A stretch of DNA of 64,000 nt from Candidatus Aenigmatarchaeota archaeon (GCA_016934325.1 JAFGSV010000012.1:44373-108372); one strand, 5' to 3'. Positions 24,245-41,104 are shown, counted from the first letter of the stretch. Notes: generated by a model from the sequence alone, not told the origin. Program-made: numbers and translations.

Positions 24245-24345
24245 ACAGTGTGAAATTTGTCTTCATAAGCATTTCAAATAACCGCTGCGAACGACGGAGA
24301 CGGAACGCTTTCACACATATAAGTTTATTTTCATCAATAATAAAC

Positions 24346-25082: not shown

Positions 25083-25502
25083 ATGGTCGACTTCCTTGCG
25101 CTGGAGACCCTCCTTCCGTTCCTGCTCGTCCTGGCGATCGTGTATGGCGCCATGGACACGGCTAAGATGTTCAGGAACAGGGCCCTGAAGACCATAATAT
25201 CCGTCGTCATGGCGTTCTTCGCGATAAGCGACGCATCGGTCGTAGCCATGCTTAACTCGATGCTTCCTTATGCCGCGATATTCTTCATACTCATCTTCGT
25301 GGCGGGATACGTCAGGCGGTCGCTCGGAGGCGAGGGGCAGAAGGACAACACGATAGTCATAATCATCATAGTCCTGGCGCTGCTGCTCATTGCCGCATAC
25401 GCCAGGGCGGAAGGCGGCATGTACGAGTACAGCGAGTTCTTCTGGTTCGTGGGCATCATAGCCATCATATCAATCCTTTATGCCGCCTATAAAATGAAGT
25501 GA
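25083..25502 (+). CDS. Small membrane protein paralogue 2
   Basis: N-terminal 'FLALETLLPFLLVLAIVYG' motif shared with its neighbours; 4 TM. Confidence 0.5.
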   Translation: MVDFLALETLLPFLLVLAIVYGAMDTAKMFRNRALKTIISVVMAFFAISDASVVAMLNSMLPYAAIFFILIFVAGYVRRSLGGEGQKDNTIVIIIIVLALLLIAAYARAEGGMYEYSEFFWFVGIIAIISILYAAYKMK

Positions 25503-25849
25503 TGCCGGTGGCCGCTCCAAATCCCGCGATCGGATTCCTCGAGCAGGCCGGGTTCTTCACATTCCTATCATTCCTGCTCATATTCATCGTCCTCTACTAC
25601 GTCTTCATGGAGCTGCTGAACAAGTACGTGGCCAGGCTGCAGAGTACCGATAAGAAGCGGGCGATATCACTGATACTGTCTATACTCATAACGGCGTTTC
25701 TCTTCTTCTTTTTTGCTCACTATGCTTCCACCGGCATGATTTATGTTGCCACGGCTATCTTCGTCATTCTCTTCCTTTTCGTCGTCGTCCTGGCCGCCGC
25801 AAGGGTAATGGGACTGGATTTGCTGCAGATGCTGCAACGCAAAAAATGA
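25499..25849 (+). CDS. Small membrane protein paralogue 3
   Basis: 'GFLEQAGFFTFLSFLLIFIVLYYV' motif; start overlaps the previous gene by 4 nt. Confidence 0.5.
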   Translation: MMPVAAPNPAIGFLEQAGFFTFLSFLLIFIVLYYVFMELLNKYVARLQSTDKKRAISLILSILITAFLFFFFAHYASTGMIYVATAIFVILFLFVVVLAAARVMGLDLLQMLQRKK

Positions 25850-25925: not shown

Positions 25926-26468
25926 ATGGCAGATCCATTTTCGCAAATGGTAACGAACTTGGAGAACATGGGATTCTTCCAGTACTTGTTCCCTTTTTTG
26001 CTGGCTTTCGCCATCCTCTATGGGATCCTGAAATGGGTCTTCAGGGACAAGATCGAGCCGAGGGTTGTAGCCTTGATCTCGGTGGTCCTGTCTTTCTTCG
26101 TGATGCTGTATTCGGCCTATAACACGTGGCTCTACAACTTCCTGGCCAACGCATCCGGGGTCTGGCTCGGGATGGCAACGGTGCTCCTGTTCATCGTAGT
26201 ACTCGCGGCACTGGCAGGCATAAACCTGCACGAGTTCCTGGGCGAAGAGAAGAGGTCATGGCTCAAGTACCTGATAATAATCGTGATCGCGTACGTAGTC
26301 ATCGTCTCCTTCCTGGGCACGGGGGCTTACTACTCGTACCTGCCTTTCTGGCTGACGAGCGGCGACCTGTGGACGGTATTGCTGGTCATAATAATACTGG
26401 CGATAGTGTTCTGGTTCGTCGGCGGCGAGGAAAAGACAGGGGCGAAAGAAGGGGAAAAGAAAGAGTGA
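25926..26468 (+). CDS. Small membrane protein paralogue 4
   Basis: 'LENMGFFQYLFPFLLAFAILYG' motif; 5 TM; KE-rich C-terminus. Confidence 0.5.
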   Translation: MADPFSQMVTNLENMGFFQYLFPFLLAFAILYGILKWVFRDKIEPRVVALISVVLSFFVMLYSAYNTWLYNFLANASGVWLGMATVLLFIVVLAALAGINLHEFLGEEKRSWLKYLIIIVIAYVVIVSFLGTGAYYSYLPFWLTSGDLWTVLLVIIILAIVFWFVGGEEKTGAKEGEKKE

Positions 26469-26594: not shown

Positions 26595-27617
26595 CTATTC
26601 GGGCGGCGCGTACGGGGACTGGGGCTTCGGCCTGGGCGGCATCGCTGAGGGCGGTGCAGGCGCCTTCGGTTCCTCGCGGGGCTGTTCGATCGTTACCGGC
26701 TCCCCCTTCTTTGAAGCCTTGACGGCGTGGCTGAACTTCCTGATCGACTCCACCATGGGGGTGAGCGAACCCTTGACGATCTCCTCCAGGGAGTCTATCC
26801 TGGCGTTGGTGTCCTCTATGACGTGCTTCTGCTCCTCGATGTCCTTCCTTATGGACTCGATCTCCTGCGGAGGCACGCCGGCGCCCGGGACCTGGTCGGC
26901 CGCGCTCTTGACGCCTGACGCCATGTCGTCGATCTTGCCTTCGAGGGCGTTGACCCTGCTCATCATCTCGGACCATTTCTCCTCGGTCACCTCTTCCGTG
27001 AGCTCCTCTACTTCCCTGCGCCTCCTGTCCTTGAGCTCTCTTACCCTGTCCTCGCCCCTCTTGGGCAGCGGCTCCTCGAATTCCAGCGGCTCCTTCTCGA
27101 TGGCTCCGCCGCGGGGTCCATGAGGCAAGGGGGCATCGAGATCGTCCATGAAAGCCCCTGGGCCCATCCTCCTCTCCTTTGGCAGGTCTTCCATATCCTC
27201 GTCCAGGTCATCGTCCGTCCAGGGCGATGGCATGTAATTCTGCTGCGGGTATGACGGAGGCATTCCCGGCTGCTGGATTGGCGGCTGGTCCTGGAAGGAG
27301 TATGTTGGCGGAGGAGCGGGAGCTGGCGGAGCGGACAGGGGCGAACCGGGCTGAGTTCCCGGAAGCGGGGGCGGGGATGGCGGGCCAAAACGGCCAGGCC
27401 GCGGGTATGGAGGCGCCTGGACGCCCGTCCCGGTGCGCAAGGCGTCCTTCATGGCCCTGTCGACCTCGAGTGGGGAGAATCCCTCCTCCCTGAGAGTCTT
27501 TATGATCTCGGGCTCTGACAGGCCCTGGGAAGAAAGGGAAACGACCTTTTCAGTCGGTATCCTCGGCCCAGCGGGTGCTGGACCGCCCGCCTGCTTCTTT
27601 TTGGAAAGGCCAAACAT
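26595..27617 (-). CDS. Pro-rich/coiled-coil protein with N-terminal UBA-like helix bundle
   Basis: 'LSEPEIIKTLREEGFSPLEVDRAMKDAL' (NAC/UBA-like), an ~100-aa PxxP-rich linker, an acidic region and a C-terminal heptad coiled coil. Confidence 0.5.
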   Translation of the reverse strand: MFGLSKKKQAGGPAPAGPRIPTEKVVSLSSQGLSEPEIIKTLREEGFSPLEVDRAMKDALRTGTGVQAPPYPRPGRFGPPSPPPLPGTQPGSPLSAPPAPAPPPTYSFQDQPPIQQPGMPPSYPQQNYMPSPWTDDDLDEDMEDLPKERRMGPGAFMDDLDAPLPHGPRGGAIEKEPLEFEEPLPKRGEDRVRELKDRRRREVEELTEEVTEEKWSEMMSRVNALEGKIDDMASGVKSAADQVPGAGVPPQEIESIRKDIEEQKHVIEDTNARIDSLEEIVKGSLTPMVESIRKFSHAVKASKKGEPVTIEQPREEPKAPAPPSAMPPRPKPQSPYAPPE

Positions 27618-27675: not shown

Positions 27676-28080
27676 TCATTTGGGGCTCTTCTGCGCCGTT
27701 TTCTGCTCCTCCAGGGGCGCAAACTGCTGCATAAGCAACGGGTCCAGTATCTTGAGCTTCTCCTCGACCCTCTTGAGCTCGCTCTTCCTCGCGAGGAACT
27801 GCAGCTGCTTGACGACCTCCTTCAGCGTGTTCTGGACCAGGGTGACCTTCTCGTCCTGGGCCGTCACCTTTGCGGTCAGGCCGTCGATTGAGCTCTGCAG
27901 GGCCTTTATCTTCTCGATCAGGGACTCGTCCATGGAGCCTATCCTGCTCGAGGCCAGCCTCTCCCTGTCCTCTAGTATTCTCAAGCGCTTCGTGTTGTCG
28001 TTGACCCTCCCGACAATCTCGTTTATGATGGGCGCCGGCCTCTTCTTCTGGGTTTCACCGAAGACTGGCATAAGGAACAC
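27676..28080 (-). CDS. Small coiled-coil protein
   Basis: 134 aa, continuous heptad pattern. Divergent from the ATPase gene across a 68-nt AT-rich spacer. Confidence 0.45.
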   Translation of the reverse strand: MFLMPVFGETQKKRPAPIINEIVGRVNDNTKRLRILEDRERLASSRIGSMDESLIEKIKALQSSIDGLTAKVTAQDEKVTLVQNTLKEVVKQLQFLARKSELKRVEEKLKILDPLLMQQFAPLEEQKTAQKSPK

Positions 28081-28148
28081 GTCCGCATTTTTTTATTTAC
28101 GGGGTTACAATATTAAATAGTGTGCATCGATTTAAATAGAATAATCGT

Positions 28149-30413
28149 TTGCCAATGGTGATTTTGATGGCGGCCGGAGACTACGAGTATGACGAGAATG
28201 AGCAGAGGCTGAAGATCAACTGCCTTGGGTGCATATACGGGGCCAGCATAGAGGACTTCGCGGGGTGCATGACGAGGGTGATCGACAAGATCCTGGAAGT
28301 CAAGAAGGTCAAGACTATAGTCCTGGCGAAGGACAGGGAGTACGAGTACGGCCCCGAGCAGACCGCGATACTCGTGGAGATAGCCCGGGTCATCGAGGAG
28401 GTCGTCAGGGAGAAGCTGATGACCAAGGTTCCTGTCAGGGACAGCCTGCAGAAGAGGATGCTGCCCGAATTCAACAGCAGGCTGCAGAGGATAATACTCA
28501 ACCTGCTCAGGAGCGACCCCATAGGCGCGTACGTCGAGCTCGTGCGGGAGATACGCCGCGTCAGGATAAAGATGAAGGAGACCCGCTACAGGGGCGCCTA
28601 CGACTTCTACAGGGATTTCGAGAGGGACGTCCTCGGGGTGATAAAGGCCAAGCTCGAGAACACCCAGCTGATAAAGCTGGCCAGGCCCCACATGGCAGGC
28701 TACCACATCGGCGACAGGTCGCTCTACAGGGAGATATTCGTCCCGAGCATAAGGCCCAACTTCATGCTCACCAGGTACATGATAACGCCGCCCGAGAACG
28801 GGAAGTCCGTGGAGAGGTACAAGATCGGGGACATAGAGGTCGAGATATTCAAGCTGCCCGACAGCGCTTCGTATTTCTACTACGTGCTGCCCCCGGAGTT
28901 CACGCTTTCTGAGGAGAAGTACGCGGTGCTGGACGCCGCCAGGAGGTACATGGCCACCCACAAGCCAAAGTCGGCGGAGTTCGTCAAGACGGGGCGGATC
29001 AGGGAGGTGTTCTACAACATAGGCAAGGACATGATCCGGGAGGTCGCGGACCAGCAGGGGATAAACCTGACGAACAGCGACCTCGAGCAGCTCTCGGTCA
29101 TTCTGACGAGGTACACGGCCGGTATGGGTGTGCTCGAGATACTCCTCTCGGACGAGAAGATCCAGGACATCTACATCAACTCCCCTGTGGAGTCGCAGCC
29201 CATACTGGTCTTCCACAACGACTACGAGGAGTGCAGGACGAACCTCATACCCACCCAGGGCGACGCGGAATCGTGGGCGACGAGGCTCAGGCTGCAGTCG
29301 GGCAGGCCCCTCGACGAGGCGAACCCCGTTCTCGATACCGACATCGCGGTCCCGGGAGGGAAGGCGAGGTTCTGCGTGATCACCAACACCCTGTCCCCGC
29401 ACGGGCTTGGGTTCTCCATAAGGAGGCACAGGGACAAGCCCTGGACGCTGCCCCTTTTCATAAAGGCTAAGATGCTCGACCCACTCGGGGCGGGCCTGCT
29501 CTCATTCCTTATTGACGGCACGGCGAGCCTGCTGGTCGCGGGCGGCAGGGGGGCGGGAAAGACCTCGCTCCTGGCGTCGCTCATGCTGGAGATGCTTCCC
29601 AAGACGAGGATGGTCGTCATCGAGGACACGCTGGAGCTTCCCGTGGACCAGCTCAGGAGCCTGGAATACAACATTGAGAGCCTGAAGTCGAGGTCCGTCC
29701 TCACCATGATAGAGACGGAGATGGCCAGCGACGAGGCTCTTAGGACCGCGCTGAGGCTGGGGGACTCTGCTCTGATTCTGGGGGAGGTCAGGAGTACAGA
29801 AGCGAAAGCACTCTACGAGGCCATGCGGATCGGGGCGCTCTCGAACGTCGTGGTCGGGACCATCCACGGGGAATCGGCCTACGGGGTCTTCGACAGGGTC
29901 GTGAACGACCTGGGAGTCCCCATGACGTCGTTCAAGGCCACCGACATAATCCCCGTTTGCAAGACGCTAAGGTCGGCGGACGGACTGCACAGGTTCAGGA
30001 GGATGACGGAGATAACCGAGGTCAGGAAGAAATGGGACACCAACCCCGACAAGGAGGGCGGCTTCGTCAACCTGATGGAGTACTCCGCGAAGGAGGACAA
30101 GCTCAAGCCGACCGATACCCTGGTGAACGGGGAGTCGGAGACGATAAACAGGATCGCCAGCTACGTGAGGGAGTGGCACGGGGACTGGCAAACCGTATGG
30201 GAGAACATAAACCTGAGGGCCAAGGTGAAGAGCGCGATTGTCGACATGAGCATAAAGCTGCAGAGGCCTGAGCTGCTAGAGGCGGACTGGATCACCCGGT
30301 CGAACTCACATTTCCATATAATCTCAGAGAATATCATGAAGGAGACGGGCTCGGTCGATTCCAAGACAGTCTACAACGAGTGGCTCGCCTGGATGAAGCG
30401 AAGCCTCAGATGA
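28149..30413 (+). CDS. Type II/IV secretion-family ATPase (FlaI/VirB11/GspE superfamily), unusually long at 754 aa
   Basis: Walker A 'GGRGAGKTSLL', Asp box 'MVVIEDTLEL', Walker B 'DSALILGEVR', His box 'GTIHGES'. There is an ~430-aa N-terminal extension and an ~160-aa C-terminal extension. Confidence 0.85.
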   Translation: MPMVILMAAGDYEYDENEQRLKINCLGCIYGASIEDFAGCMTRVIDKILEVKKVKTIVLAKDREYEYGPEQTAILVEIARVIEEVVREKLMTKVPVRDSLQKRMLPEFNSRLQRIILNLLRSDPIGAYVELVREIRRVRIKMKETRYRGAYDFYRDFERDVLGVIKAKLENTQLIKLARPHMAGYHIGDRSLYREIFVPSIRPNFMLTRYMITPPENGKSVERYKIGDIEVEIFKLPDSASYFYYVLPPEFTLSEEKYAVLDAARRYMATHKPKSAEFVKTGRIREVFYNIGKDMIREVADQQGINLTNSDLEQLSVILTRYTAGMGVLEILLSDEKIQDIYINSPVESQPILVFHNDYEECRTNLIPTQGDAESWATRLRLQSGRPLDEANPVLDTDIAVPGGKARFCVITNTLSPHGLGFSIRRHRDKPWTLPLFIKAKMLDPLGAGLLSFLIDGTASLLVAGGRGAGKTSLLASLMLEMLPKTRMVVIEDTLELPVDQLRSLEYNIESLKSRSVLTMIETEMASDEALRTALRLGDSALILGEVRSTEAKALYEAMRIGALSNVVVGTIHGESAYGVFDRVVNDLGVPMTSFKATDIIPVCKTLRSADGLHRFRRMTEITEVRKKWDTNPDKEGGFVNLMEYSAKEDKLKPTDTLVNGESETINRIASYVREWHGDWQTVWENINLRAKVKSAIVDMSIKLQRPELLEADWITRSNSHFHIISENIMKETGSVDSKTVYNEWLAWMKRSLR

Positions 30414-30501
30414 CCAAGCTTCGCACCCGGCACTCATGCTGGTTCTTCCGCTTTCCGGATCCGGTTCCAACAAATTAAAGCTGCAAGCACAATTATTTAC
30501 C

Positions 30502-32613
30502 ATGGCTTTGTTCGGCAGGAAGAAGAGGGTGCATCGCCCCCAGTCCCCTTATCGCGGCGTGAGCATCCCCGAGCAGTCAAGGCGGATAAGCATAGAATCG
30601 AGGGAATACAGGATATACAAGAAGAGGGTCGAGAGGAAGCTCAGCTGGTACGAGAGGCTCGCAAGGGCATGCGAGAAGCTGCTGAAGGCTAGCTTCGACA
30701 AGAAGACCGAGGACGAGCTGGCGAAGGCGATAGACTTCACGGGCCTCAGGATATCCCCTCAGGCCCCTTTCTCGATCTTCATAATAATGGTATTCCTGTC
30801 CACCATCGCCTCTCTCTTCCTGTTCGCCTTCGCGGTCTTTACGAGCCCTTTCTACATAGTAGCCGCGGCGATAGGGGGGCTTGCCGTGGGGTACTACATG
30901 CTCAGGTATCCCATAAACCTCATGAAGTCCATGAGGATAAAGGCAAGCTCCCAGGTCGTCCTCGCGATACTGTACATGGTGGTCAGCATGAGGATCTCCC
31001 CCAACATGGAGAGGGCCCTGAGGTTCACCTCCTCCAACATAAGCGGGGCCCTTGCCTGGGACATGAGGCGGCTCATGTGGGACATCGAGATGGGGAAATA
31101 CTACTCGGCCAACGAGGCCACCACGGACTACATAGCGAAGTGGAAAGCGGAGAACGAGGAATTCTCGGAGGCGCTGAGGCTGATAAGGGAATCCCAGCGC
31201 CAGGTGCCCGGGACGGCGGAGAAGACGCTGGACGAGGCACTCAGGGTCGTCCTCGAGGGGACGAGGGACAGGATGAAGCGGTACGCGCAGGACCTGCAGA
31301 TGCCCGTAACCATGCTGCACATGATGGGGATCGTGATGCCGATCCTGGGTTCTGTCATGGCCCCCATGGTCGCGGTCTTCATGGCCGACTCCATAACCCC
31401 GTGGCATTTCATCCTGGGCTACAACATCGCCCTGCCGATAATGCTCCTGTGGTTCATAAACAACATTCTTAGCAAGAGGCCCGTCACCTTCTCGCAGGTG
31501 GACATATCGAAGCACCCCGAGCTGCCTCCCGCCGGCAGCTTCATGGTCAGGTCCAAGAGGAGCAGGGCGGCGATCCCCGTGTTCCCGCTGGCCCTGCTGC
31601 TGGGGCTGCTGTTGATACTCCCGAGCATCTACTACTTCTCCGAGCATCCCGAATACATGGTGATCCCGTCCAAGGTCGTCGACGGCAGCGTCGTCTTCGA
31701 GGACGTGGACGACCCCGACAGCCTGTTCTCGCTCACAATGTCCCTGCTCATAATCATCGGGGCGGGGGCTGCCATGGCCTTCTTCTTCATAGTCTCGAAC
31801 ATCCAGAGGTCGAGAATCGAGAATAGCGTGTACAAGATGGAGTCCGAGTTCGAGCTCGCCCTGTTCCAGCTGGGCAACAGGATATCCGGAGGGACACCTC
31901 TTGAGCTTGCGGTAGAGAAGGCCAGGGATGACGTCAAGGACCTCGAGATAGCCAACCTGTTCGAGCTGACGCTCAGAAACATGAAGACCTTCGGGATGAC
32001 GTTCGAGAACGCCCTGACGCACCCGAAGCTGGGCTCGCTCAGGTATTATCCGAGCAGGCTCATCCAGAACGTCATGAGGACGATAACCGACACGGCGAAG
32101 AGGGGGGTCCAGTTCGCTTCGGAGTCCATGCTTACGGTAAGCAGGTACCTGAAGAGCGTCAGGGAGACCCAGGAGTACATGAGGACCCTGATGGCGGAGA
32201 CGACCAGCAGCATGCAGTTCCAGGCCTACGCCATGGCCCCCCTGGTCAGCGGCCTGATAGTCGCCCTCTCGCAGGTCATCATCCAGGTGCTGGTGTTCCT
32301 GGGGAGGAGGCTGGACGACATAGGCTTCCAGGACGTCTTCGGCATAGACGCCACCAAGATACTCGGCTCATCGTCAGCCATAACGGCGCCCATGTTCCAG
32401 CTGATTATCGGCGTGTACCTGATCCAGGTGATAATGATAATCGCCATCTTCGTGACCAAGATAAACAGGGGCGAGGACAAGGTCATGCAGTGGTATTCGG
32501 CGGGGAAGATGATCATAGTGGCCCTGATGATCTACTTCCTGGTCGTCATTGGCAGCAGCATGATGTTCGGGAGCATGATAGAGGGCGCGATGGCGACGAT
32601 CGCTAGTTCATGA
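30502..32613 (+). CDS. FlaJ/TadC/PilC-like polytopic platform protein (two T2SSF-type repeats)
   Basis: Two repeats of TM-TM-cytoplasmic helical domain-TM. 'LGNRISGGTPLELAVEKA' is T2SSF-like. Immediately downstream of the ATPase. Confidence 0.75.
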   Translation: MALFGRKKRVHRPQSPYRGVSIPEQSRRISIESREYRIYKKRVERKLSWYERLARACEKLLKASFDKKTEDELAKAIDFTGLRISPQAPFSIFIIMVFLSTIASLFLFAFAVFTSPFYIVAAAIGGLAVGYYMLRYPINLMKSMRIKASSQVVLAILYMVVSMRISPNMERALRFTSSNISGALAWDMRRLMWDIEMGKYYSANEATTDYIAKWKAENEEFSEALRLIRESQRQVPGTAEKTLDEALRVVLEGTRDRMKRYAQDLQMPVTMLHMMGIVMPILGSVMAPMVAVFMADSITPWHFILGYNIALPIMLLWFINNILSKRPVTFSQVDISKHPELPPAGSFMVRSKRSRAAIPVFPLALLLGLLLILPSIYYFSEHPEYMVIPSKVVDGSVVFEDVDDPDSLFSLTMSLLIIIGAGAAMAFFFIVSNIQRSRIENSVYKMESEFELALFQLGNRISGGTPLELAVEKARDDVKDLEIANLFELTLRNMKTFGMTFENALTHPKLGSLRYYPSRLIQNVMRTITDTAKRGVQFASESMLTVSRYLKSVRETQEYMRTLMAETTSSMQFQAYAMAPLVSGLIVALSQVIIQVLVFLGRRLDDIGFQDVFGIDATKILGSSSAITAPMFQLIIGVYLIQVIMIIAIFVTKINRGEDKVMQWYSAGKMIIVALMIYFLVVIGSSMMFGSMIEGAMATIASS

Positions 32614-32777
32614 ACGCCCGCCGTAAACGCCATGTGATAAAATAGAACCGCGCGAATGAGAAAGTCAATCCATGGCCTTAGAATTGCGCTGATCAATGAC
32701 GCAAGCCAGTTCACCAATCTGAATCTTACCAATCTGAATGATACTATTTATATTTCCGGGATAATATACATTTATCC

Positions 32778-35700
32778 ATGGGAATGAAATCCCAGATATC
32801 CTTTTTGTCAGGAACCCCGATGCAGCTGATCCTGGTCCTTATAGCGGCGATAGGATTCCTGGCATTCGTGACCCTTGGCGCAGGGAACATCACGCAGTTC
32901 TTGCGCGAGACGTGCGAGAAATACCCCGAACTGCCATTCTGTGGGGGGCTTGAAGCGGTCGAGGCTAGGGATTACCAGACCGCCAAGGCATCAACGGAAG
33001 CTCTGGTATGCGCAATAAATTCGGTTGCTCAGGGAAGCGAATGGCTAGGTGGCGGACAGATCGACTGTAATGAGTATTTCGGGAAATCTGGTCCAGTTGC
33101 CGTCCCAGACTCGGATTATGAGAGGATCGAAAAATCGATAAACGCCGGTCTGGGCGTGTTTGACGACGAAGGATGCAGGGACAGGTGCATCGAGGAATTG
33201 TGCCAGGGGATTCCGGGCTGCGAGGTTGAAAGCTCGACATACATTGAAACACTCAAGACGGTTGACGCCGGCCATGAAGGCGATGTCAATTATACCTCAA
33301 GGCGATGCGAATGCGTTGTAGGAATTTCCAATGACCCCAGAGTGAGTTGCGGACAAGAGGAAACAGAAAAATTCGAATACTATGCCGTTAGAGAAGCCGG
33401 GACCATCCTTGAGTGCGAATGCATTTACAGTGGAGGAAGTGAAAACATCATCAAATCAAAGGCCTTCGGCTTGACGAAGGAGCAGGCCGTGTATAACTGC
33501 CATGACTTAGCGAAAAGGGACGTCGAGATCCAGTGCGAAGAGATAAATATAGAGGATAGCCCTGGAGGAAATGCATGGTACCTCAGCATACAGGCCGATT
33601 CCGTAATATTAAAAGGGGAGATGAGGAGGGGTCTGTGCAAGCTGGACGGTGAAAGAGAGAAATTCCATGTATACGGATATGACGACACGAACGTATTTGC
33701 CCAATGCGATTATGACTATGACGCATCCAGATTCTCTATCAATCCCTGGCTGATAAACACCGCCGTCAGCAGGGAGGTTGTCAAATACGAGGATTTTACC
33801 GGCGAACTGATATTTTACAAGAAGGACTTCACGGGAAGGGTCCCCTATTACTATCAGGCAAATCAATTCGAATGCGCTTTGAGCAACTTCGAGTTACCGC
33901 AAGAGATTACTGATTGGGAAGAATGGGTGCCTTGGCACGGAGACCCCAGGTTTTTAATCTACTGGCAGAATTTCCCCGCCGAAGAAGACATGTGGACGAT
34001 GAAAACCAACTGGAAGTTATATGTTGTCTTAGGGATAATAAGCGTCTTGCCGGTCCTGAAATCCGCAAGGATAGTTGCTGGAACGGCTGCACGAGCGGTC
34101 TTGAGTAGAATTTTCAGTTCTCTTGGGAAGGAGGCCGCGGAGAATGTGATAAAAAAAGGCGTAACAACAAGTATGATAAAAAAGGCTTCTACGACGGCAG
34201 TGAAAAACATGATGAAAAAGGGGACTCTATCGAAAACGGTCGGTGGAGAAGTGTTAAGCAGACTTGGAAGGGCGAATATCAATAACGCCATGAAAGAAGC
34301 TGGTGGAGAATTGGCAGAGAGAATAGCAAGGACTTCTGTAGCACAGGCGCCCCAGATTGCTCAGGAATATGCGGTAGATGCCGCAGGAAGGGCACTGACG
34401 CAGGCGGGATTGTATGGCATACCCCAGGAAGCAGCTGAAAAGCTCATGAAAGAATCGGGAGAGGCCGCAAGCAGACAGGCATTGAAATATATGGGCGCAT
34501 ACGGAATGAGGGAACAGTTCGTCAAGCTAATAGGTGATAGGGTCGTGGGAAAAGAATTACCCTGGACAGCCTTGAAGTTTTCAACACTCGTAGGTGCCGC
34601 CAGGATAGCCGAGATAGCCGACAGTATGACACAAGCCAGATTTGAAGTTTTTCCGAACGAAATAGTGTTAAAAGAGGCCCTTGGAAGCCCGGATGAATTC
34701 GATCTCGTTGATGAAATGGATGGTTCACCGGTTCTCATTGTCGTTCCGAACAGGGAATCTAAGTATATATTGCCACAAGTTTTTGACACGGAGAAAACCT
34801 TCCATATGGCATCACCATGCTATCTCGAGTCAGTGACCGTTAGCGGGGTCGATGCCCGATGCTCCGAGTACACATACAACAGAGAAGAAGACGGCTCAAC
34901 TTTTACGAGTTGCGGCGGGGAAATCGAAATAACGGGCAAGGGAGAGCCGTGCGATATAAACCTCTATGGCATGAGCAATTTGGGCCCAATGGAATTCATC
35001 TACTACCTCCATGCCATACCGGACCCAATGTCAGTCATATACAATGATGAGAAAGCACTTGATGAAGGGAAGAATGCGTATGCACCGATTGAATACGAAG
35101 AAGATTGCCCGACGACAATACAATGCGGTAGCAATAACGTTTATTACCATTTTGATGGCACGGAATGGAAATGGAAATCTCCCAGCGCAAATATCGATGA
35201 TTACAGACCAGTGCAACAGGTTTCTGACACGGAATGGCAAAATCTTGAACAAAATTACGACTTCGAGACCGCACACTTCGATATTATGAACGGCTTGGCG
35301 GGCAAGAACTTCGAATCCGGTGTTTCCGTTATTCAATCAACCCTCAACAGCGACAAAGACACAAAAGGAGGCAAAACCAGTGACGACTATCTTATAATAC
35401 ACCAATTTAAGAAATCGCCGAGTGAAACGTCGCCTAGTGATAACTATAATAACCTGGCTGAAATAATGACAGAAGATGTCAGCATGAGCGCCGGTTATTA
35501 TATAATCCCATTCGCGGAAAGCACGCTTCTGTATTACAAACCGGAGCCCGAAACGCTCAAAATAGGTAAAGTCGAGGGAGATAAAATAACCACATACGAA
35601 CTCACGAAGGACAGCGAAAGTTACCTTCATAATGTGTACACGCCAGTGGATTTTGAAGACGTGGTTGACATTCAGAAGAGCAGCAGTACGAGATTGGGAG

Positions 35701-36239
35701 AAAGAACGGCTATTATCACAACTTTCAGGATTGATGTCCCTGACTGGTCAGACTCCTATGGCGGTGACATAACATGGGTCAATATAGAAATCAATAATCC
35801 GGACGAGAAAGCAATAGAGATAGAGCCTTCCAGCGTGAACGGCGGCATCTTCGCAACAATAACGCTTTCCGATGAAGGTGATAACGGCATACTCCATTCA
35901 ATCATAATCGAACAAGACGATAAGGCTAAAACGATGACAGATTTCAATTATGACATGGAGGGTTTTGATTACTACAACCTAAGGAACTGCATAAGCAAGG
36001 GCGTCATCGTTGAAATGGGTAAGAAGAAAGGCGACGCGACCAATTATTGCACGGGTGGCCTTTCTACAGGTAAAGCATGGCTTGAATATGGCGGTGACAT
36101 TGCACTTGTGGCAGGTGTGGTGGTCGGCACATGTTTAGGAGGATGGCCTGGCGCTGCGGTTGCTGCTGTTGGGGGTCTTATCGAAACGGGATCTGAATAC
36201 GCGAGCGAGAAAATGGGCGAATGGCCAAACTCCTGGTGA
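32778..36239 (+). CDS. Giant Cys-rich membrane protein (N-terminal hydrophobic anchor, internal hydrophobic segment, C-terminal Gly-rich TM)
   Basis: 1153 aa. N-terminus 'FLSGTPMQLILVLIAAIGFLAFV'. About 30 Cys in the first 400 aa. A K-rich middle region. C-terminal 'IALVAGVVVGTCLGGWPGAAVAAVGGLI'. Confidence 0.6.
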   Translation: MGMKSQISFLSGTPMQLILVLIAAIGFLAFVTLGAGNITQFLRETCEKYPELPFCGGLEAVEARDYQTAKASTEALVCAINSVAQGSEWLGGGQIDCNEYFGKSGPVAVPDSDYERIEKSINAGLGVFDDEGCRDRCIEELCQGIPGCEVESSTYIETLKTVDAGHEGDVNYTSRRCECVVGISNDPRVSCGQEETEKFEYYAVREAGTILECECIYSGGSENIIKSKAFGLTKEQAVYNCHDLAKRDVEIQCEEINIEDSPGGNAWYLSIQADSVILKGEMRRGLCKLDGEREKFHVYGYDDTNVFAQCDYDYDASRFSINPWLINTAVSREVVKYEDFTGELIFYKKDFTGRVPYYYQANQFECALSNFELPQEITDWEEWVPWHGDPRFLIYWQNFPAEEDMWTMKTNWKLYVVLGIISVLPVLKSARIVAGTAARAVLSRIFSSLGKEAAENVIKKGVTTSMIKKASTTAVKNMMKKGTLSKTVGGEVLSRLGRANINNAMKEAGGELAERIARTSVAQAPQIAQEYAVDAAGRALTQAGLYGIPQEAAEKLMKESGEAASRQALKYMGAYGMREQFVKLIGDRVVGKELPWTALKFSTLVGAARIAEIADSMTQARFEVFPNEIVLKEALGSPDEFDLVDEMDGSPVLIVVPNRESKYILPQVFDTEKTFHMASPCYLESVTVSGVDARCSEYTYNREEDGSTFTSCGGEIEITGKGEPCDINLYGMSNLGPMEFIYYLHAIPDPMSVIYNDEKALDEGKNAYAPIEYEEDCPTTIQCGSNNVYYHFDGTEWKWKSPSANIDDYRPVQQVSDTEWQNLEQNYDFETAHFDIMNGLAGKNFESGVSVIQSTLNSDKDTKGGKTSDDYLIIHQFKKSPSETSPSDNYNNLAEIMTEDVSMSAGYYIIPFAESTLLYYKPEPETLKIGKVEGDKITTYELTKDSESYLHNVYTPVDFEDVVDIQKSSSTRLGERTAIITTFRIDVPDWSDSYGGDITWVNIEINNPDEKAIEIEPSSVNGGIFATITLSDEGDNGILHSIIIEQDDKAKTMTDFNYDMEGFDYYNLRNCISKGVIVEMGKKKGDATNYCTGGLSTGKAWLEYGGDIALVAGVVVGTCLGGWPGAAVAAVGGLIETGSEYASEKMGEWPNSW

Positions 36240-36251
36240 GATGCTGGGTGG

Positions 36252-36437
36252 ATGCAGTTTAAAAAATACAAGAGAAGAATATCCATGGAATTCACGATAA
36301 GGACGATAGTGGTGCTTACCCTTCTTCTCGTAGCCACGTTGGTCTTTGCGGCCGTGATGCTCGGGTGGGGCTCCGAGTCGAGCGAATGGCTCACCGCGGT
36401 AATGAGCCCATTCCAGAACCTCGTCCTGAGGAGATAG
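36252..36437 (+). CDS. Small pilin-like membrane protein
   Basis: 'KRRISMEFTIRTIVVLTLLLVATLVFAAV': basic N-terminus followed by a ~22-aa hydrophobic helix. Confidence 0.3.
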   Translation: MQFKKYKRRISMEFTIRTIVVLTLLLVATLVFAAVMLGWGSESSEWLTAVMSPFQNLVLRR

Positions 36438-36518
36438 CCCGGAAATCCAACCTTCACCACTTACAGGAACCCCTCTTTGGATAGCGAAACAGCGCAACAA
36501 GCATATTTTTAAGGGAGC

Positions 36519-36971
36519 TTGAACATAATTATAGTTATGAAAGGATTGTCTCTTACCTTGACTATAGTCATCGTAGCCATTGTTCTTCTGGTGACAGCGC
36601 TCGTCGTGATGACAATCTTCGGCGGACAGATTGCTCAGTTCATAGGCATTCTGAATCCCTGGTCTGAGGCCATGCTCAAGCAGAGCCTGTGCAACCAGAA
36701 ATGTGCAGCCTATTGCCAGGGGCATGTAGGCATTTCCGAACCGGTTTCATGGAATACGATTGGGGAAATCGATGCACAATCTGAGCCTAAGAATTGTGGA
36801 ACAATAATGCAGGACATCAGCGAAAACTGCGTCTGCAGAGGCATACCCGTCGCGGGAACCGGCAAAAGCGAGGGCCAATCTTGCAGCGGAACAACGGATA
36901 CCAGTTGCGCTTCGCCACTGACTTGCAAGCCGAAAACACAAGGTTCAACGGAATACACGTGCCAGAAATAA
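36519..36971 (+). CDS. Pilin-like protein with class III (prepilin) signal and a Cys-rich ectodomain
   Basis: 'MKG|LSLTLTIVIVAIVLLVTALVV' (K-G followed by a hydrophobic run). 14 Cys in the C-terminal ~95 aa. Confidence 0.55.
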   Translation: MNIIIVMKGLSLTLTIVIVAIVLLVTALVVMTIFGGQIAQFIGILNPWSEAMLKQSLCNQKCAAYCQGHVGISEPVSWNTIGEIDAQSEPKNCGTIMQDISENCVCRGIPVAGTGKSEGQSCSGTTDTSCASPLTCKPKTQGSTEYTCQK

Positions 36972-37048
36972 GCAAGAACATACTATTCCCTGGGCCAAGC
37001 ATTTCAGCAGCATTCGTTTTTTTTAATCAGCCCCGGCAATTATAATTC

Positions 37049-37177
37049 ATGAAGGGCGGATTCCCGGGAATGAATGCATGGCTATGGCTGATGCTTACCA
37101 TCATAGTGTGCGCCATTGCGATCTTCTGGGCAACCAGCAGGATTGGCCTTGTGGATTTCCCGAGCCTGCTGGGATGA
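37049..37177 (+). CDS. Mini membrane peptide, possible pilin-like (42 aa)
   Basis: 'MKG|GFPGMNAWLWLMLTIIVCAIAIF'. Below the ORF-track cutoff and translated manually. Confidence 0.25.
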   Translation: MKGGFPGMNAWLWLMLTIIVCAIAIFWATSRIGLVDFPSLLG

Positions 37178-37279
37178 TGAACCCCATGCGACCGAACCTA
37201 TTCTGCTCTTCTGTTCCATAGTCCGCTGAACCAAATTGAAATTCTTATTAAAATGGCGAAGGACATAGATTAATTAGGC

Positions 37280-37399
37280 ATGAAAAGGGTAAAGGGGCAG
37301 GTTTCGGAGATGGGATTCAGCATCGTGGAGATGCTGATAACGCTTGCGGTTATCGCGATAGTGATCGCGATAGTGTTGTGGCTGATAACCCCCAGTTAA
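37280..37399 (+). CDS. Mini-pilin with bacterial-style prepilin motif (39 aa)
   Basis: 'MKRVKGQVSEMG|FSIVEMLITLAVIAIVIAIV': G followed by F at +1 and E at +5, then a hydrophobic helix, as in type IVa prepilins. Confidence 0.45.
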   Translation: MKRVKGQVSEMGFSIVEMLITLAVIAIVIAIVLWLITPS

Positions 37400-37454
37400 A
37401 GGATTATCGTTCTTCCACACCCAAATTTAAGAGTCAACCAGCTAATTATTATAT

Positions 37455-38090
37455 ATGAGAAAGGGAGGAGGCATACTGCCCAAGCCGCTGCTTGCGGCAG
37501 CGATGCTTGCGCTTTTTGTTTTCGCGTTGGTCATGCTGTACTGGAGGCTGGAGCTCATCCTGACCAACCCGTGCTGGAGCGACGCGATGGAGAGGCTCAG
37601 GCCCATCGCGGAAAGCCCGTCAAGGGGCCTGTCAGCGACCATTATCCTTGACGGCGATTCCGAGACGGGGAACTGCCTGAGCAAGGTCGTGTTCACGCCG
37701 AGCCCTGATGCCTGTGAGGACGCGTGCGAGGATTACAAAGGCGATGAAGACCAGAAGCGGGCATGCCTGCAGAAATGCCAGGTCGAGCCAGGCGAATCGA
37801 AGAGCTTCGTAGTAGCCATTCCTGCCGTGAGGGAAGGTATACTGGGGAGCGGAAAGAAAGTGATTGACGCCGTTGCCAAGCGCAGCTTCTATTGGCTCTT
37901 CGACGGCAAGCCGATGGTATTTTCCCTGGAATGCGAGCTAGTCGATTTCGATGTACCAGCCAGAGAATGCACCCCCGAGGGCGACTCTTGGATATGCACG
38001 CCCGGTAATAAGAAGAGCCAGTACAATATCAGGGTCGTAAAAGACGGCGAAAGGACTTGCAGGATAGTCGAATCCACGGCCGTTTCGTAG
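37455..38090 (+). CDS. N-terminally anchored Cys-rich secreted, pilin-like protein
   Basis: 'MRKGG|GILPKPLLAAAMLALFVFALVML'. 16 Cys, including 'CEDACEDY' and 'CLQKCQ'. Confidence 0.5.
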   Translation: MRKGGGILPKPLLAAAMLALFVFALVMLYWRLELILTNPCWSDAMERLRPIAESPSRGLSATIILDGDSETGNCLSKVVFTPSPDACEDACEDYKGDEDQKRACLQKCQVEPGESKSFVVAIPAVREGILGSGKKVIDAVAKRSFYWLFDGKPMVFSLECELVDFDVPARECTPEGDSWICTPGNKKSQYNIRVVKDGERTCRIVESTAVS

Positions 38091-38106
38091 CCATATTTTA
38101 TAGGCG

Positions 38107-38547
38107 ATGAATGCTATGGAAGGAACCAGGAACATGGTGGCGGTCTCATTCGCGCTAATCGTCGTTGCGCTTTACCTCATATCAGCAATCTACATCGTGA
38201 ATCCGTTTCTAAGCAAGAACTTCATAGTACTGGATGATGCCGTTGCCCTGTACATAGACACCCTTGCCTCGGTGGATGAGGGAAGCGCGGTTATCCATGT
38301 CGAGAAGGGTGCGGTGAACAAGCTGGAGATAACTTACCTCAAGAAGGGCGAAGAGGAGGGAATCGAGCATGACGGCTGGTACGCCGTAGCCACTTACAGG
38401 CTGGTTGCCGACAAGACCGAGATAAGCGCGAGCAGGATAAACTCGTACCCTTCCGATGCCCCGGCGAACAGCAACATCTTCTCACCAACCGAGGTATGCA
38501 TAATCAAGGAGAGGGGCTCTGAATATCCGAGGGTGTCGAAATGCTGA
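38107..38547 (+). CDS. N-terminally anchored pilin-like protein
   Basis: Single N-terminal TM 'MVAVSFALIVVALYLISAIYIV'. The C-terminus overlaps the next gene. Confidence 0.45.
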   Translation: MNAMEGTRNMVAVSFALIVVALYLISAIYIVNPFLSKNFIVLDDAVALYIDTLASVDEGSAVIHVEKGAVNKLEITYLKKGEEEGIEHDGWYAVATYRLVADKTEISASRINSYPSDAPANSNIFSPTEVCIIKERGSEYPRVSKC

Positions 38548-39380
38548 AGGGGCAGCTGGACATCGACATAGAGATGATGGGGGGGACCATGATATTCATA
38601 GCGCTGACCCTGATCATGTTCATGGAGATCCTGCTGCCATTGCTGGTCGTTAACTACAACATGGAGACCTCGATGGAGGATATAAGGGCGGTCGAATTCG
38701 CGAACCTCGCAAAGGCAAGGATGATAGATCAGATAGGGGATGGCGAAGGGGACATAGACTATGCAAGGCTCGAGGCCCTGCAGGGAAGCAGTCTTGGTGA
38801 CATCGGCCTGGCATCGAATTACCTTCTCGTGGAGGATCTGATTAAGGGGACCACTTTCGAGTTCGCCGGGAAGAGGGGGAAAACGGAGCATGACGTCTAC
38901 GCCACGCTTTCCAGCCGCTTCCTGCCATCAATCGAGAGCTCCGATATAGTCATGCAGGGCAACAACGAATATTTCGTTCACATATACAGCCTGAGCGAGG
39001 ACGGGAAGAGCATAGCCGTCGACATCCAGGATGCTGGTTCATGCGTCATGTATAGCCAGGGCGATATCAAAGAGAGCCGGTTCAAGGCCGCCGGATGCGA
39101 TGACTTCACGTCCAAACAAGTGGTTGAAGACGGCGCCGAGGCCCTTATCAGGGGGGAGGTCTCGAATGCCATGGACAGCGGCGAAAGCCAATTCGTCAGG
39201 GTGAAGCCAAAGTCGGACATATCAGCCGGCGATATCGTGGTGACAGGTATGAAGCTCGGCAAGAGCTGGGGGTGCAGAGATTCCGGCGATCCTCAGGTCT
39301 GCATCAGGCAGATCGGGGATTTCGTCTTCCCCGCAAGGATACACGTGGAGCTGGCCGAGGGAAGTGATATCGTGGCCTGA
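38541..39380 (+). CDS. N-terminally anchored pilin-like protein
   Basis: 'EMMGG|TMIFIALTLIMFMEILLPLLVV', then a soluble beta-rich domain. Confidence 0.45.
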   Translation: MLKGQLDIDIEMMGGTMIFIALTLIMFMEILLPLLVVNYNMETSMEDIRAVEFANLAKARMIDQIGDGEGDIDYARLEALQGSSLGDIGLASNYLLVEDLIKGTTFEFAGKRGKTEHDVYATLSSRFLPSIESSDIVMQGNNEYFVHIYSLSEDGKSIAVDIQDAGSCVMYSQGDIKESRFKAAGCDDFTSKQVVEDGAEALIRGEVSNAMDSGESQFVRVKPKSDISAGDIVVTGMKLGKSWGCRDSGDPQVCIRQIGDFVFPARIHVELAEGSDIVA

Positions 39381-39434
39381 TTTCGATCATGGGCGCTTAC
39401 GGGGGCTATAATCAAAATCAGAGAGGCATAAACG

Positions 39435-39941
39435 ATGAACAGGAAGAAGGCGGCAATCGGGATCTTCGGGATGGTGTTGATAGGGGTAGCCATCCTTGCG
39501 GTCATGTACCTGGTACAGTCAAGCTGGATATCGAAAGGATTCAAGATAAGGGCCGACGCGAGAATATTTGTAGATGTCAATGACGAAAGCAGCAAGATAT
39601 TATCATTGCTGAAATCGAAGACCGGGGATTCGGGCCTCACGGAGATGCTCGCACGCGAGCTCGAGTCAGTCCCTGCGGATTCTGCGGCGGATGAAATCAC
39701 CGAGCTTGCGGACCAGCTGAACATAGCTATAGTTCTGTACGGCGAGAACGGGAAGGAAAAGAAGAGATACGGTAAAAGGGTCCCGCACGAAGAGGATATG
39801 ATACAGATGGAAATAGCGTTGCCCGGCGGGAGAAGCGCCTTGATAGGCATAGCCTCTGATTTCAATACAGGGGATTATGGACAATTCTCAGGCGGGGGTG
39901 GGGGAGGAACAGGAGGCGGAGGTGCCGGAGGCGGCTGGTAG
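39435..39941 (+). CDS. N-terminally anchored pilin-like protein with poly-Gly C-terminus
   Basis: 'NRKKAA|IGIFGMVLIGVAILAVMYLV'. C-terminus 'SGGGGGGTGGGGAGGGW'. Confidence 0.5.
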   Translation: MNRKKAAIGIFGMVLIGVAILAVMYLVQSSWISKGFKIRADARIFVDVNDESSKILSLLKSKTGDSGLTEMLARELESVPADSAADEITELADQLNIAIVLYGENGKEKKRYGKRVPHEEDMIQMEIALPGGRSALIGIASDFNTGDYGQFSGGGGGGTGGGGAGGGW

Positions 39942-39967
39942 CCGCCTTATGAGAGGAAGTGTGAATC

Positions 39968-41104
39968 ATGTCATCATCGTTCAACTCGGGGAAAAGCAAG
40001 GGAATGGCGAACATAGTGTACATAATGGGCCTGATAGCGATGTGCAGCATATCACTCGCTCACATCGTCCCTTCCATATCCAGGCAGCCGGAGTCCAACG
40101 TCATTGACATCGCGCTGGAAAACAGGATATTCATGATGCAGGACAGCCTTGAACTGGCAAAGCTTTATCTTGACGATGCGGCGATGTATTCCATCTACCA
40201 GGCAATGCATGACAATGGCGTCAACGGCGGTTTTGAAAGCATGGGTGGCAGCAGCCTGCTGCAATACGAGGGACATAAATACACCGTGTGGTACAACAAC
40301 ATGGACATTGCCCCCGACGAGAGCGACATAACCGACGCTCTCGAGGCCGCAACGAAGGCGAATCTGAAGAAATACACCGAAGATGGCAGCATCAGGGCAT
40401 TCTTCTTCGTACCCATGCCCAGATACAATAGTATAACGGTCACGAATCTGGAAGGCCAAGGGGTAAGGCTGGAGGCTTCCAGCGCTTCCGGCTTATCCCT
40501 GCGAGAGACAGCCGAGAGCGGGGACGTATTGACGGCCGGCCGGAACTCAACGATAGACCTGAGGCTGCCTTCGCCTTACTTCAGCCTTTACGGCATCGCA
40601 AAGGGCTATCACGATGAGCTGGAAGGGAAGCTGCCGGATTGCGAGAAGGCATCGATAGAAATAATGAACGAGGACAAGGGTTGCTGCTCAGCGGATCTGC
40701 ATGTCCTTGACAGCACTGACGGAAGCTGCCTCGTCCGGGTCGAGGTCAAGAGCAAGGAAGGGTTGGTGGTTTGGGACCCCGATGATGAGAAGAGCGTACT
40801 CGCTCCGGTCAGCTTGGTCTTCCTTGAAAGGCTGGGACCGGTCATGGAGAGGTGCATGGAATGCACAGCTTCGGACGGCACATGGTGCATCCAGTCAGAG
40901 AAATGCTCTACGGGAGGGGTAACGAACGACTGTCCCTCCGATTCTGTAATTGCCGGTGCATCCTGCATGGCCCTTGATCAGCTCACCTGCCAGGATTGCA
41001 TCAGCAATGTCTTGCCGGATGGGGGCTGGGCGTGGTGCCCCGATCAGGGCGTGTGCGCCCAGTCTTGTACGGGAGAAACGGTCACGGACATAGACGATTG
41101 CTAG
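39968..41104 (+). CDS. N-terminally anchored protein with a highly Cys-rich C-terminal domain
   Basis: 'KSKG|MANIVYIMGLIAMCSISLAHIV'. About 20 Cys in the last 130 aa ('CMECTASDGTWCIQSEKCSTGG...CQDCIS...CPDQGVCAQSC'). Confidence 0.5.
   Translation: MSSSFNSGKSKGMANIVYIMGLIAMCSISLAHIVPSISRQPESNVIDIALENRIFMMQDSLELAKLYLDDAAMYSIYQAMHDNGVNGGFESMGGSSLLQYEGHKYTVWYNNMDIAPDESDITDALEAATKANLKKYTEDGSIRAFFFVPMPRYNSITVTNLEGQGVRLEASSASGLSLRETAESGDVLTAGRNSTIDLRLPSPYFSLYGIAKGYHDELEGKLPDCEKASIEIMNEDKGCCSADLHVLDSTDGSCLVRVEVKSKEGLVVWDPDDEKSVLAPVSLVFLERLGPVMERCMECTASDGTWCIQSEKCSTGGVTNDCPSDSVIAGASCMALDQLTCQDCISNVLPDGGWAWCPDQGVCAQSCTGETVTDIDDC

Follow-up and report, generated by a model that had tools for sequence, protein, structure and literature searches.

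Modular pilin-like proteins in a probable type IV filament machine of Aenigmarchaeota

We report the analysis of a 64,000-nucleotide stretch of DNA from a Candidatus Aenigmatarchaeota archaeon (GCA_016934325.1 JAFGSV010000012.1:44373-108372), in the following called the window, and of a compact run of co-oriented open reading frames (ORFs) in it, at positions 28149-41104 and all on the plus strand, which encode an assembly ATPase, a platform protein, a giant membrane protein and nine small proteins. In our judgement this locus probably represents a machine for a type IV filament (T4F), lineage-specific to Aenigmarchaeota, in which modular pilin-like proteins are the central element. Rather than an ordinary pilus, its product is probably a surface filament with which other cells are contacted or breached. 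What is mainly new is the modularity, as the C-terminal modules are polymorphic on four pilin-like scaffolds (t42, s168, s279 and s378). A preliminary description of the same stretch had also proposed a type IV filament-type locus. Its ORFs are all in place, on the plus strand and at the coordinates it gave, and the ATPase, the platform and the class III-like N-termini speak for its proposal, while its claims on size, ATPase extension, tip component and boundary are revised below.

The genes of the run are listed here with their coordinates in the window (aa, amino acids; nt, nucleotides; TM, transmembrane segment; a slash marks the putative cleavage site). The small ORFs, of which eight or nine had been counted before, number nine, with lengths of 50/61, 144, 42, 39, 211, 143/146, 279, 168 and 366/378 aa.

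28167..30413, plus strand: ATPase, 748 aa, of the FlaI/GspE/CpaF/VirB11 superfamily, Walker A GGRGAGKTS at aa 459-467 (nt 29541-29567)
30502..32613, plus strand: platform, 703 aa, of the PilC/GspF/TadC/FlaJ type, with two cytoplasmic helical domains and about 8-9 TM
32778..36239, plus strand: giant, 1153 aa, class III-like N-terminus MGMKS/QISF.., Cys-rich ectodomain at aa 36-400, C-terminal TM
36285..36437, plus strand: s61, a 50-aa single-pass membrane protein starting with MEFT, without a leader
36537..36971, plus strand: s144, the candidate major pilin, MKG/LSLTLTIVIVAIVLLVTALVVMTIFG, Cys-rich head with 10 Cys
37049..37177, plus strand: t42, a truncated pilin-like gene, MKG/GFPGMNAWLW..
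37280..37399, plus strand: t39, a 39-aa helix-only mini-pilin, MKRVKG/QVSEMG/FSIVEMLITLAVIAIV
37455..38090, plus strand: s211, pilin-like, MRKG/..KP followed by a helix, invariant NPCW motif and 10 conserved Cys
38116..38547, plus strand: s146, 143 aa, a very short ME[GAS] N-terminus followed by a hydrophobic helix
38541..39380, plus strand: s279, pilin-like, MLKG/QLDIDIEMMGGT followed by a helix, 4 invariant Cys
39435..39941, plus strand: s168, pilin-like, MNRKKA/AIGIFG.., Gly-rich tail at the end
39968..41104, plus strand: s378, pilin-like, KSKG/MANIVY.., conserved ~290-aa module and C-terminal 12-Cys module

Related loci (L numbers) were collected by a platform-profile scan with one genome per species, which resulted in 80 loci, essentially all from Aenigmarchaeota, and the synteny of the window proteins in these loci was assessed by tblastn. 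L087 is another assembly of the same organism, in which the genes were called independently. When ten locus proteins were compared to Pfam and NCBIfam only the ATPase was matched.

The ATPase is recognized by Pfam PF00437 T2SSE (E 7e-16) and, among the PDB sequences, by afGspE 2oap (E 8e-27), CpaF (1e-19) and FlaI (1.8e-12). The TadA/FlaI-type models of NCBIfam (TIGR03819, NF058587) match at E ~1e-33 to 1e-35, all far under their equivalog cut-offs, and the FlaI model reaches 116 bits compared to an equivalog cut-off of 550. GGRGAGKTS (Walker A), GEVRS and TIHGES (His box) are invariant across 24 homologs; the locus thus encodes an ATPase of the T2SSE/FlaI/VirB11 family with Walker A/B, Asp and His boxes, the family of the hexameric ATPases used in type IV filaments. 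The closest database entry, a 748-aa "type II/IV secretion system ATPase subunit" from a metagenome-assembled genome (MAG) of Candidatus Aenigmarchaeota, is 100% identical, which places the organism among the DPANN archaea, and conservation is high, with at least 66% identity over the 120 best clusters. As all homologs have a length of about 748 aa, the start is most likely the ATG at 28167. Residue 288 of the ATPase aligns to residue 100 of afGspE, and position 42 of the FlaI model falls near residue 231 of the 754-aa ORF, from which an N-terminal surplus of ~190 aa follows, not the ~430 extra residues described earlier. This extension is lineage-specific and consists of a small beta/alpha unit and a helical bundle. 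Several ATPase orthologs (among P0003, P0024, P0090, P0099, P0100, P0103, P0106 and P0115) are 1258-1290 aa long due to an intein with LAGLIDADG endonuclease; the window copy of the 748-aa ATPase is intein-free, and the other pilus ATPase and the AMP phosphorylase of the window carry inteins.

The window copy of the platform has no match in Pfam or NCBIfam, and as its profile found nothing among the PDB sequences, a fold search was used. About 270 homologs were collected, nearly all ~700 aa long and from Aenigmarchaeota, and the start is most likely 30502 (703 aa). PF00482 T2SSF is matched by 15 out of 25 diverse homologs at >=50% identity (best 2.2e-6), and because of these matches the FlaJ/PilC-type assignment of the preliminary description is confirmed. 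The second core part of a type IV filament, a polytopic platform of the PilC/GspF/TadC/FlaJ type, is therefore present by fold and by family. In one genome, CP070804.1, the platform gene is split: the first 124 codons lie beside the ATPase at ~173-195 kb (L003:12288-12660), and the other 566 codons ~295 kb away, followed by the giant, the pilin-like genes, Alba and enolase (L006/L016:10001-11701). Either a rearrangement through the gene or a misassembly of the MAG accounts for this.

The order of the genes is an argument that they belong together. The window clade comprises L007, L009, L011, L013, L016, L017, L018 and L085, with L089 as a close relative, and keeps the succession of four small membrane proteins, two divergent coiled-coil genes, ATPase, platform, giant, s61, s144, t42, t39, s211, s146, s279, s168 and s378, followed by Alba and enolase. 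The complete order recurs in 8-9 loci of the clade and in L089. The independent gene calls in L087 follow the order of the window, with 703, 1153, 61, 144, 42, 39, 211, 143, 279, 168 and 366 aa, and the 366-aa gene is followed by Alba, enolase and phosphoglycerate mutase. The two tiny ORFs in the gap at 36971-37455, t42 and t39, were called there as well. An origin of the locus from a mobile element was considered and rejected, as Alba, enolase and phosphoglycerate mutase flank it in conserved synteny. In more distant lineages the genes of ATPase and platform adjoin each other in about 20 loci; elsewhere they lie apart.

The small ORFs were compared to L007 codon by codon. The first 60 codons of s144 differ by 18 synonymous-only and 1 nonsynonymous changes; the corresponding numbers are 17 and 6 for t42, 12 and 6 for t39, and 13 and 12 for s61. 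These counts indicate purifying selection on the ORFs of 39 and 42 aa. We considered whether t42 might be a random pseudogene and rejected this, since its 42-aa form recurs in L089 and synonymous-only changes outnumber nonsynonymous ones by 17 to 6. The possibility, raised with the preliminary description, that the small ORFs are not conserved can be set aside: N-termini and order are retained in addition to the signature of purifying selection. The region 33400-37600, which covers the variable half of the giant gene, s61, s144, t42 and t39, has a GC content of 0.43-0.49, and the genes of ATPase and platform have 0.54-0.63; the low GC would be compatible with fast turnover or recombinational replacement in this part.

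To localize class III-like N-termini we scanned all six-frame ORFs of at least 35 aa in the 64 kb for the pattern [KR][GAS] followed by a hydrophobic segment. Out of 15 matches, eight are consecutive within the 8.3 kb of 32778-41104, two belong to the Pilin_N pilins at 57-58 kb, and the remaining five lie scattered. The dipeptide at positions -2/-1, [KR/E][GAS], is conserved in the orthologs of nine proteins, the giant included, so that class III signals are recognized here at the level of the motif, from the eight consecutive matches and the conserved dipeptide. s144 begins with MKG/LSLTL, and its first ~30 residues are almost invariant across the clade. Orthologs of t42 start with M[KR][GA]/[GSA]FPG, those of s211 with M[RK]KG/, about 7 residues and a helix, those of s146 with ME[GAS][ST][RK] in 7 out of 8 loci, those of s279 with MLKG/QLDIDIEF.GGT and a helix, those of s168 with [KR][GA]/[AS]IG, those of s378 with [KR][GA]/M.N, and those of the giant with [KRS][GAS]/, ~8-10 residues and a helix. 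t39 combines an archaeal-type KG/Q site with a bacterial-type G/FxxxE motif; its orthologs start with ..KG/QVSEMGFSIVEML, its length is 37-39 aa in five loci, and its match to Pfam N_methyl (E 4.5e-4, 20.1 bits) stays just below the cut-off of 21.2. The earlier claim of such a signal on every small ORF is supported by this conservation in orthologs, with the exception of s61, which starts with MEFT without a leader and whose orthologs all begin with ME[FMVL]T. Likewise, the statement that most small proteins are Cys-rich applies to s144 (10 Cys), s211 (10) and s378 (17), weakly to s279 (4), and not to the other five, which have 0-2 Cys. Profiles of the ortholog sets of s279, s378 and s211 returned only noise from the PDB, and s211 has no relative in PDB or Pfam.

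The C-terminal parts of these proteins differ between sister loci. The following modules were found:

t42 orthologs in L016, L013, L018, L085 and L009: Glucosaminidase, E 2e-7 to 9e-3, orthologs 161-246 aa
s168 orthologs in L011, L009, L013 and L085: Peptidase_M23, E 1e-19 to 1e-24, all above the cut-off
s168 orthologs in L016 and L018: Peptidase_M15_4, E about 1e-15 to 1e-16, above the cut-off
s279 orthologs in L011 and L018: C-terminal SLT lytic-transglycosylase module, the L018 copy just below the cut-off
s378 ortholog in L011: GDSL lipase, E 1.5e-13, above the cut-off

The N-modules of the enzyme-bearing orthologs align to the window proteins at E 3e-22 to 7e-51, hence the enzyme modules are C-terminal additions to orthologous scaffolds. 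For Glucosaminidase only the L016 copy lies above the curated cut-off of Pfam, the other four having E 1e-6 to 9e-3. The s168 orthologs measure 322-371 aa in seven sister loci, and all six that were scanned (L017, a near-duplicate of L013, was left out) end in an M23 or M15_4 domain. The catalytic motifs are intact in the M15 copies. In the M23 copies HxxxD is conserved in 4 out of 4, and HxH is intact (HLH) only in L011; it reads HLD in L009, L013 and L085 (e.g. L013:13478-14590), and these modules may be variant or degenerate LytM-type domains. An Amidase_2 protein beside the split ATPase of L003 was rejected as a modular pilin due to its Tat-like signal. This N-acetylmuramoyl-L-alanine amidase is encoded together with an FHA-domain membrane protein directly after the split ATPase (L003:12944-14797, CP070804.1), and represents a further murein-directed enzyme in an archaeon that is not pilin-like.

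In the window only 42 aa are left of t42, s168 ends in its Gly-rich tail, and s378 carries the 12-Cys C-terminal module (aa 296-378, nt ~40853-41101), which matches no known family. A tblastn search of the window for lost hydrolase domains found none. Because L089 shares the 42-aa t42 and the short s168, the loss or swap of enzyme modules is a lineage trait and not decay in one MAG. The s378 equivalent of L089 (L089:14145-15974, 609 aa) bears a different C-terminal module of ~300 aa, which is unrelated to that of the window, has no Pfam match and contains a CGPWS motif that, judged by eye only, recalls cysteine-peptidase active sites.

The giant has three clear hydrophobic segments (17-35, 416-434, the latter called TM2, and 1108-1126) and 27 Cys, of which 18 lie within residues 36-400, which bears out the earlier picture of three hydrophobic segments and a Cys-dense ectodomain. 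The signature F.LPQ..GDP.FL.Y is found at aa 373-395. After TM2 an Ala/Lys-rich helical region is followed by a second large variable region, and a weaker amphipathic segment is found at ~593-612; this segment would be required as a further one if the second large region is extracellular. No Pfam or NCBIfam family matches the giant. A word-based homolog search retrieved 6 relatives, and an exhaustive HMMER search against 1.84 billion representatives retrieved 238 clusters at 50% identity with E<=1e-3, 138 of them with E<=1e-10, with lengths of 600-1300 aa. The family has a conserved core at aa 360-480 and secondary blocks at 1-100 and 600-760; common features are the [KR][GA]+helix N-terminus and F.LPQ...GDP.[FY]L.Y just before TM2, and the C-terminal TM is present in most members. 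Judged by these alignments, the giant is to be regarded as a conserved hallmark component with variable ectodomains.

The unit does not begin with the ATPase. Six unannotated genes upstream of it, at 24055-28080, are syntenic with the ATPase and remain beside it in L001-L003, where the platform lies elsewhere. Judging from this synteny we place the probable start of the unit at 24055, and the boundary of 28149 given before is too narrow. The six genes are:

24055..25071, plus strand: up1, 3-TM membrane protein with a C-terminal coiled-coil tail, syntenic tblastn matches in 9 loci
25083..25502, plus strand: up2, small polytopic membrane protein with 4-5 TM, upstream of the ATPase in 16 loci
25499..25849, plus strand: up3, small polytopic membrane protein with 3 TM, conserved in 9 loci
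25926..26468, plus strand: up4, polytopic membrane protein with 5 TM, conserved in 20 loci
26595..27617, minus strand: m340, soluble, Pro-rich linker and C-terminal coiled coil, divergent from the ATPase, syntenic in 19 loci
27676..28080, minus strand: m134, small coiled-coil protein, direct divergent neighbor of the ATPase, syntenic in 20 loci

Homology of up1 spans only aa ~82-330, and its true start is therefore probably downstream of 24055. No Pfam family matched up1 or up2, and the Pfam scan of m340 returned coiled-coil noise only. up4 stays with the ATPase in the split loci L001, L002 and L003, and the synteny of m340 also includes split genomes.

A canonical archaeal pilus locus is found at 55285-61147 of the same window, so that the locus under study constitutes a second, specialized system:

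55285-56160 and 56161-57024: half-size T2SSF platform genes
57100-57528 and 57576-58010: two Pilin_N (PF07790) pilins
58043-61147, minus strand: T2SSE ATPase, 1034 aa, interrupted by an intein with LAGLIDADG endonuclease

Further genes of the window concern other functions. A form III-type RuBisCO large subunit (49020-50288, minus strand, PF00016 E 4e-88) is adjoined by an intein-containing gene of the AMP/thymidine-phosphorylase family (45972-49013, minus strand); RuBisCO and AMP phosphorylase form a nucleotide-salvage pair that is common in DPANN. At 51750-51869 an Rfam tRNA match of 120 nt (45 bits) presumably contains an intron, and ARAGORN reports no tRNA in the window. A 1312-aa ORF at 48-3986 shows weak Ig-like/PKD-like matches and possibly encodes an S-layer or surface protein.

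How the parts might work together can be outlined as follows. The short leaders would be trimmed by an A24 prepilin peptidase from another part of the genome, and the hexameric ATPase docked on the platform would pull the subunits from the membrane. s144 could be polymerized into a short filament or pseudopilus; it is the likely polymerizing subunit because its N-terminal helix is nearly invariant. t42, t39, s211, s146, s279, s168 and s378 would be minor, priming or tip subunits which display their C-terminal modules outside, their N-modules then being true pilin modules, and the multi-pass giant together with the upstream membrane and coiled-coil proteins may form the membrane base. In the sister genomes enzymes that degrade envelopes would be brought by the filament to another cell, a bacterium, or to debris of cell walls, a target suggested by the relatives' modules, which are murein hydrolases and an esterase. 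In the sublineage of the window the enzyme modules are missing or swapped for Cys-rich ones, and here the same machine most likely serves in binding or contact rather than lysis. That a separate canonical pilus lies in the same window leaves room for such a specialized role.

Several observations weigh against this interpretation, and one must keep them in mind. No small protein lies above the threshold for Pilin_N (PF07790) or any pilin family, five of the locus proteins giving no Pilin_N match even at E<=10, and a [KR]G followed by a hydrophobic helix equally resembles a plain signal-anchor. In four proteins (giant, s279, t39 and s211) 5-12 polar residues separate the putative cleavage site from the helix, which is atypical. 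A tblastn search with two Aenigmarchaeota A24 queries detected no A24 prepilin peptidase in the 64-kb window; the enzyme for which the preliminary description had suggested a search was found in relatives, where a Peptidase_A24 (PF01478) gene divergently adjoins a member of the platform family in about 20 out of 80 related loci. ATPase and platform are non-adjacent in many Aenigmarchaeota, and the pilin-like cluster occurs 3' of the platform only in the window clade, L064 and L086. Finally, the locus of the window has no recognizable enzyme module itself, and the lytic role is extrapolated from relatives.

The last point would fit an ordinary type IV pilus that serves adhesion to a host, with s144 as major pilin, the other small proteins as common minor pilins, the giant as tip adhesin and the enzymes of the relatives as incidental, and this is the alternative that we take most seriously, even if we regard it as unlikely. 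The core parts of a pilus are present, Cys-rich extracellular modules suit adhesion, and DPANN archaea rely on cell contact (PMC8407114). Against this, an ATPase and a split platform of their own already accompany the Pilin_N pilins of the canonical pilus locus in the window, and the hydrolase modules recur at the same gene positions across seven sister loci and are hence not incidental. The giant moreover retains at least two further TM segments and the conserved juxtamembrane motif, and because of these it could not leave the membrane; a detachable tip adhesin is not plausible, and the earlier description of a tip or adhesin-like component becomes doubtful, as two or three further membrane segments are retained.

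A second alternative is that the small proteins are unpolymerized signal-anchored (type II) exoproteins or enzymes, displayed in a bindosome-like manner without a filament and co-transcribed with, or sorted by, ATPase and platform. The [KR]G motif with its TM, the spacers before the helix and the lack of a pilin family match all fit this idea, for which the bindosome is a precedent. In addition, hhalign comparison of seven small-protein families revealed no paralogy beyond the TM helix. The strict conservation of G/A/S at position -1 in nine families speaks against it; a near-invariant helix as in s144 is typical of a polymerizing subunit, the 39-aa helix-only t39 with its GFxxxE-like motif makes a poor anchor, and A24 adjoins the platform in relatives. 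We consider this display without polymerization improbable.

That the cluster serves its own envelope, in wall-polymer remodelling or cell division with hydrolases acting on self, recalls the glucosaminidase, SLT and M23 enzymes that open the wall for trans-envelope machines in bacteria (FlgJ and VirB1 are examples of such dedicated enzymes) and would agree with the coiled-coil proteins m340 and m134 beside the ATPase, but it is very improbable, given that no murein synthesis genes were seen in any of the related loci inspected and that the window sublineage drops the hydrolase modules yet keeps the rest of the machine. To our knowledge no murein occurs in archaea.

The filament machine with modular pilin-like proteins thus remains the reading we prefer. 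A stronger version of it is put forward tentatively, as a possibility to which we would not give even chances: that the modular-pilin filament bearing murein hydrolases and lipase is a contact-dependent, envelope-breaching organelle, with the giant and the ATPase-linked genes as new structural parts. If this were true, these DPANN archaea would attack, parasitize or feed on bacteria, instead of or besides archaea, and the sublineage of the window would have exchanged lytic for Cys-rich binding modules, suggesting a changed partner or lifestyle. We know of no cultured member of the Aenigmarchaeota. The conserved surface machine, with bacterial cell-wall hydrolases on its subunits in some lineages and Cys-rich binding modules in others, could offer a concrete molecular clue to what these organisms touch, and how.

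Our literature search found no description of this locus family, its giant component or its modular pilins, nor any paper in which murein hydrolases are connected with pilin-like N-termini in archaea; the genome paper on Aenigmarchaeota speaks of FlaG/I/J and type IV pili (T4P) only. The archaeal T4P are the closest relatives to be compared. Makarova et al. 2016 (PMC4858521) reported comparably complex T4P loci from methanococci and Thermoproteales, which include large proteins and numerous Cys-rich minor pilins, and the claim that the present gene set is larger than any characterized archaeal pilus locus is therefore overstated. Makarova et al. 2019 (PMC6393860) reported T4P islands in DPANN with dark-matter proteins, probably pilins, beside ATPase and TadC. 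The word "undescribed", as used before, is thus only partly true: it may hold, as far as our search goes, for the family, the giant and the modular pilins, and not for islands of this kind as such. The locus shares with the archaeal T4P of both papers, especially those of Thermoproteales, the VirB11/FlaI ATPase and the TadC/FlaJ platform, as well as one or two large proteins, many conserved Cys, and small secreted proteins which evolve fast and bear class III-like signals. It differs in that its subunits match no pilin family, the locus proteins lacking PF07790 and thereby the mark of Pilin_N-type adhesive pili (Aap, Ups, Epd-like), and in its ~190-aa ATPase extension, the multi-pass giant with a signature motif and the six upstream genes. 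The enzyme modules of the relatives are likewise not described in these papers, and the word "hydrolase" is absent from PMC4858521.

In bacteria, modular type IV pilins are an accepted concept (PilB/PilC of Streptococcus sanguinis; Raynaud et al. 2021, PMC8179133). Like the N-terminal pilin modules of these, the putative pilin modules of the sister loci bear a grafted C-terminal module, which the filament would present and the identity of which varies between relatives. Unlike the bacterial examples, the present proteins are archaeal, the modules of the relatives are murein hydrolases and a lipase and not vWA or lectin, and the putative pilin module is recognized neither by IPR012902 nor by N_methyl, the near-threshold t39 excepted. 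The survey in PMC8179133 contains only S74 and M26 as peptidase modules and does not mention archaea. If the N-modules are pilin modules, the modular pilin principle would no longer be confined to bacteria but extend to archaea, with enzymes as the cargo.

In the Sulfolobus bindosome, class III signals are known from surface proteins that are not pilins (PMC4858521), and with this system (BasEF and BasABC) the locus has in common a T4P-type ATPase and platform handling functional surface proteins with class III signals. The gene content differs and the bindosome is without a giant protein; in the locus proteins no substrate-binding-protein domain was found, and the BasE model NF053672 reaches 58.5 bits compared to a cut-off of 1000.

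A type II secretion system (T2SS) or Com pseudopilus resembles the locus in having a major and several minor (pseudo)pilins beside an ATPase and a GspF-type platform, in the GFxxxE-like N-terminus of t39 and in the association with hydrolytic exoenzymes. In contrast to T2SS, the enzymes of the relatives are fused to pilin-like proteins and are not free substrates, and the ATPase belongs to the archaeal FlaI/GspE/CpaF branch; neither a secretin nor GspC/L/M families were found in the locus, where only t39 approaches N_methyl. The earlier view that the machine is pseudopilus-like rather than an adhesive pilus gains from the glucosaminidase, M23/M15, SLT and GDSL modules of the orthologs, and does not hold in the sense of a T2SS. 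With the archaellum the locus shares the FlaI-like ATPase and the FlaJ-like platform, whereas no archaellin, FlaF/G/H, FlaX or FlaCDE was found by Pfam and NCBIfam in the ORFs at 24055-41104, in agreement with the absence of archaellum accessory genes noted in the preliminary description.

Compared to these systems the giant family with its LPQ/GDP motif, the ~190-aa ATPase extension, the six ATPase-linked genes and the 39-aa mini-pilin represent new candidate parts of type IV filaments. For the window itself a more modest statement applies: its T4F locus is divergent and well conserved, and comparative-genomic surveys had already anticipated loci of this kind.

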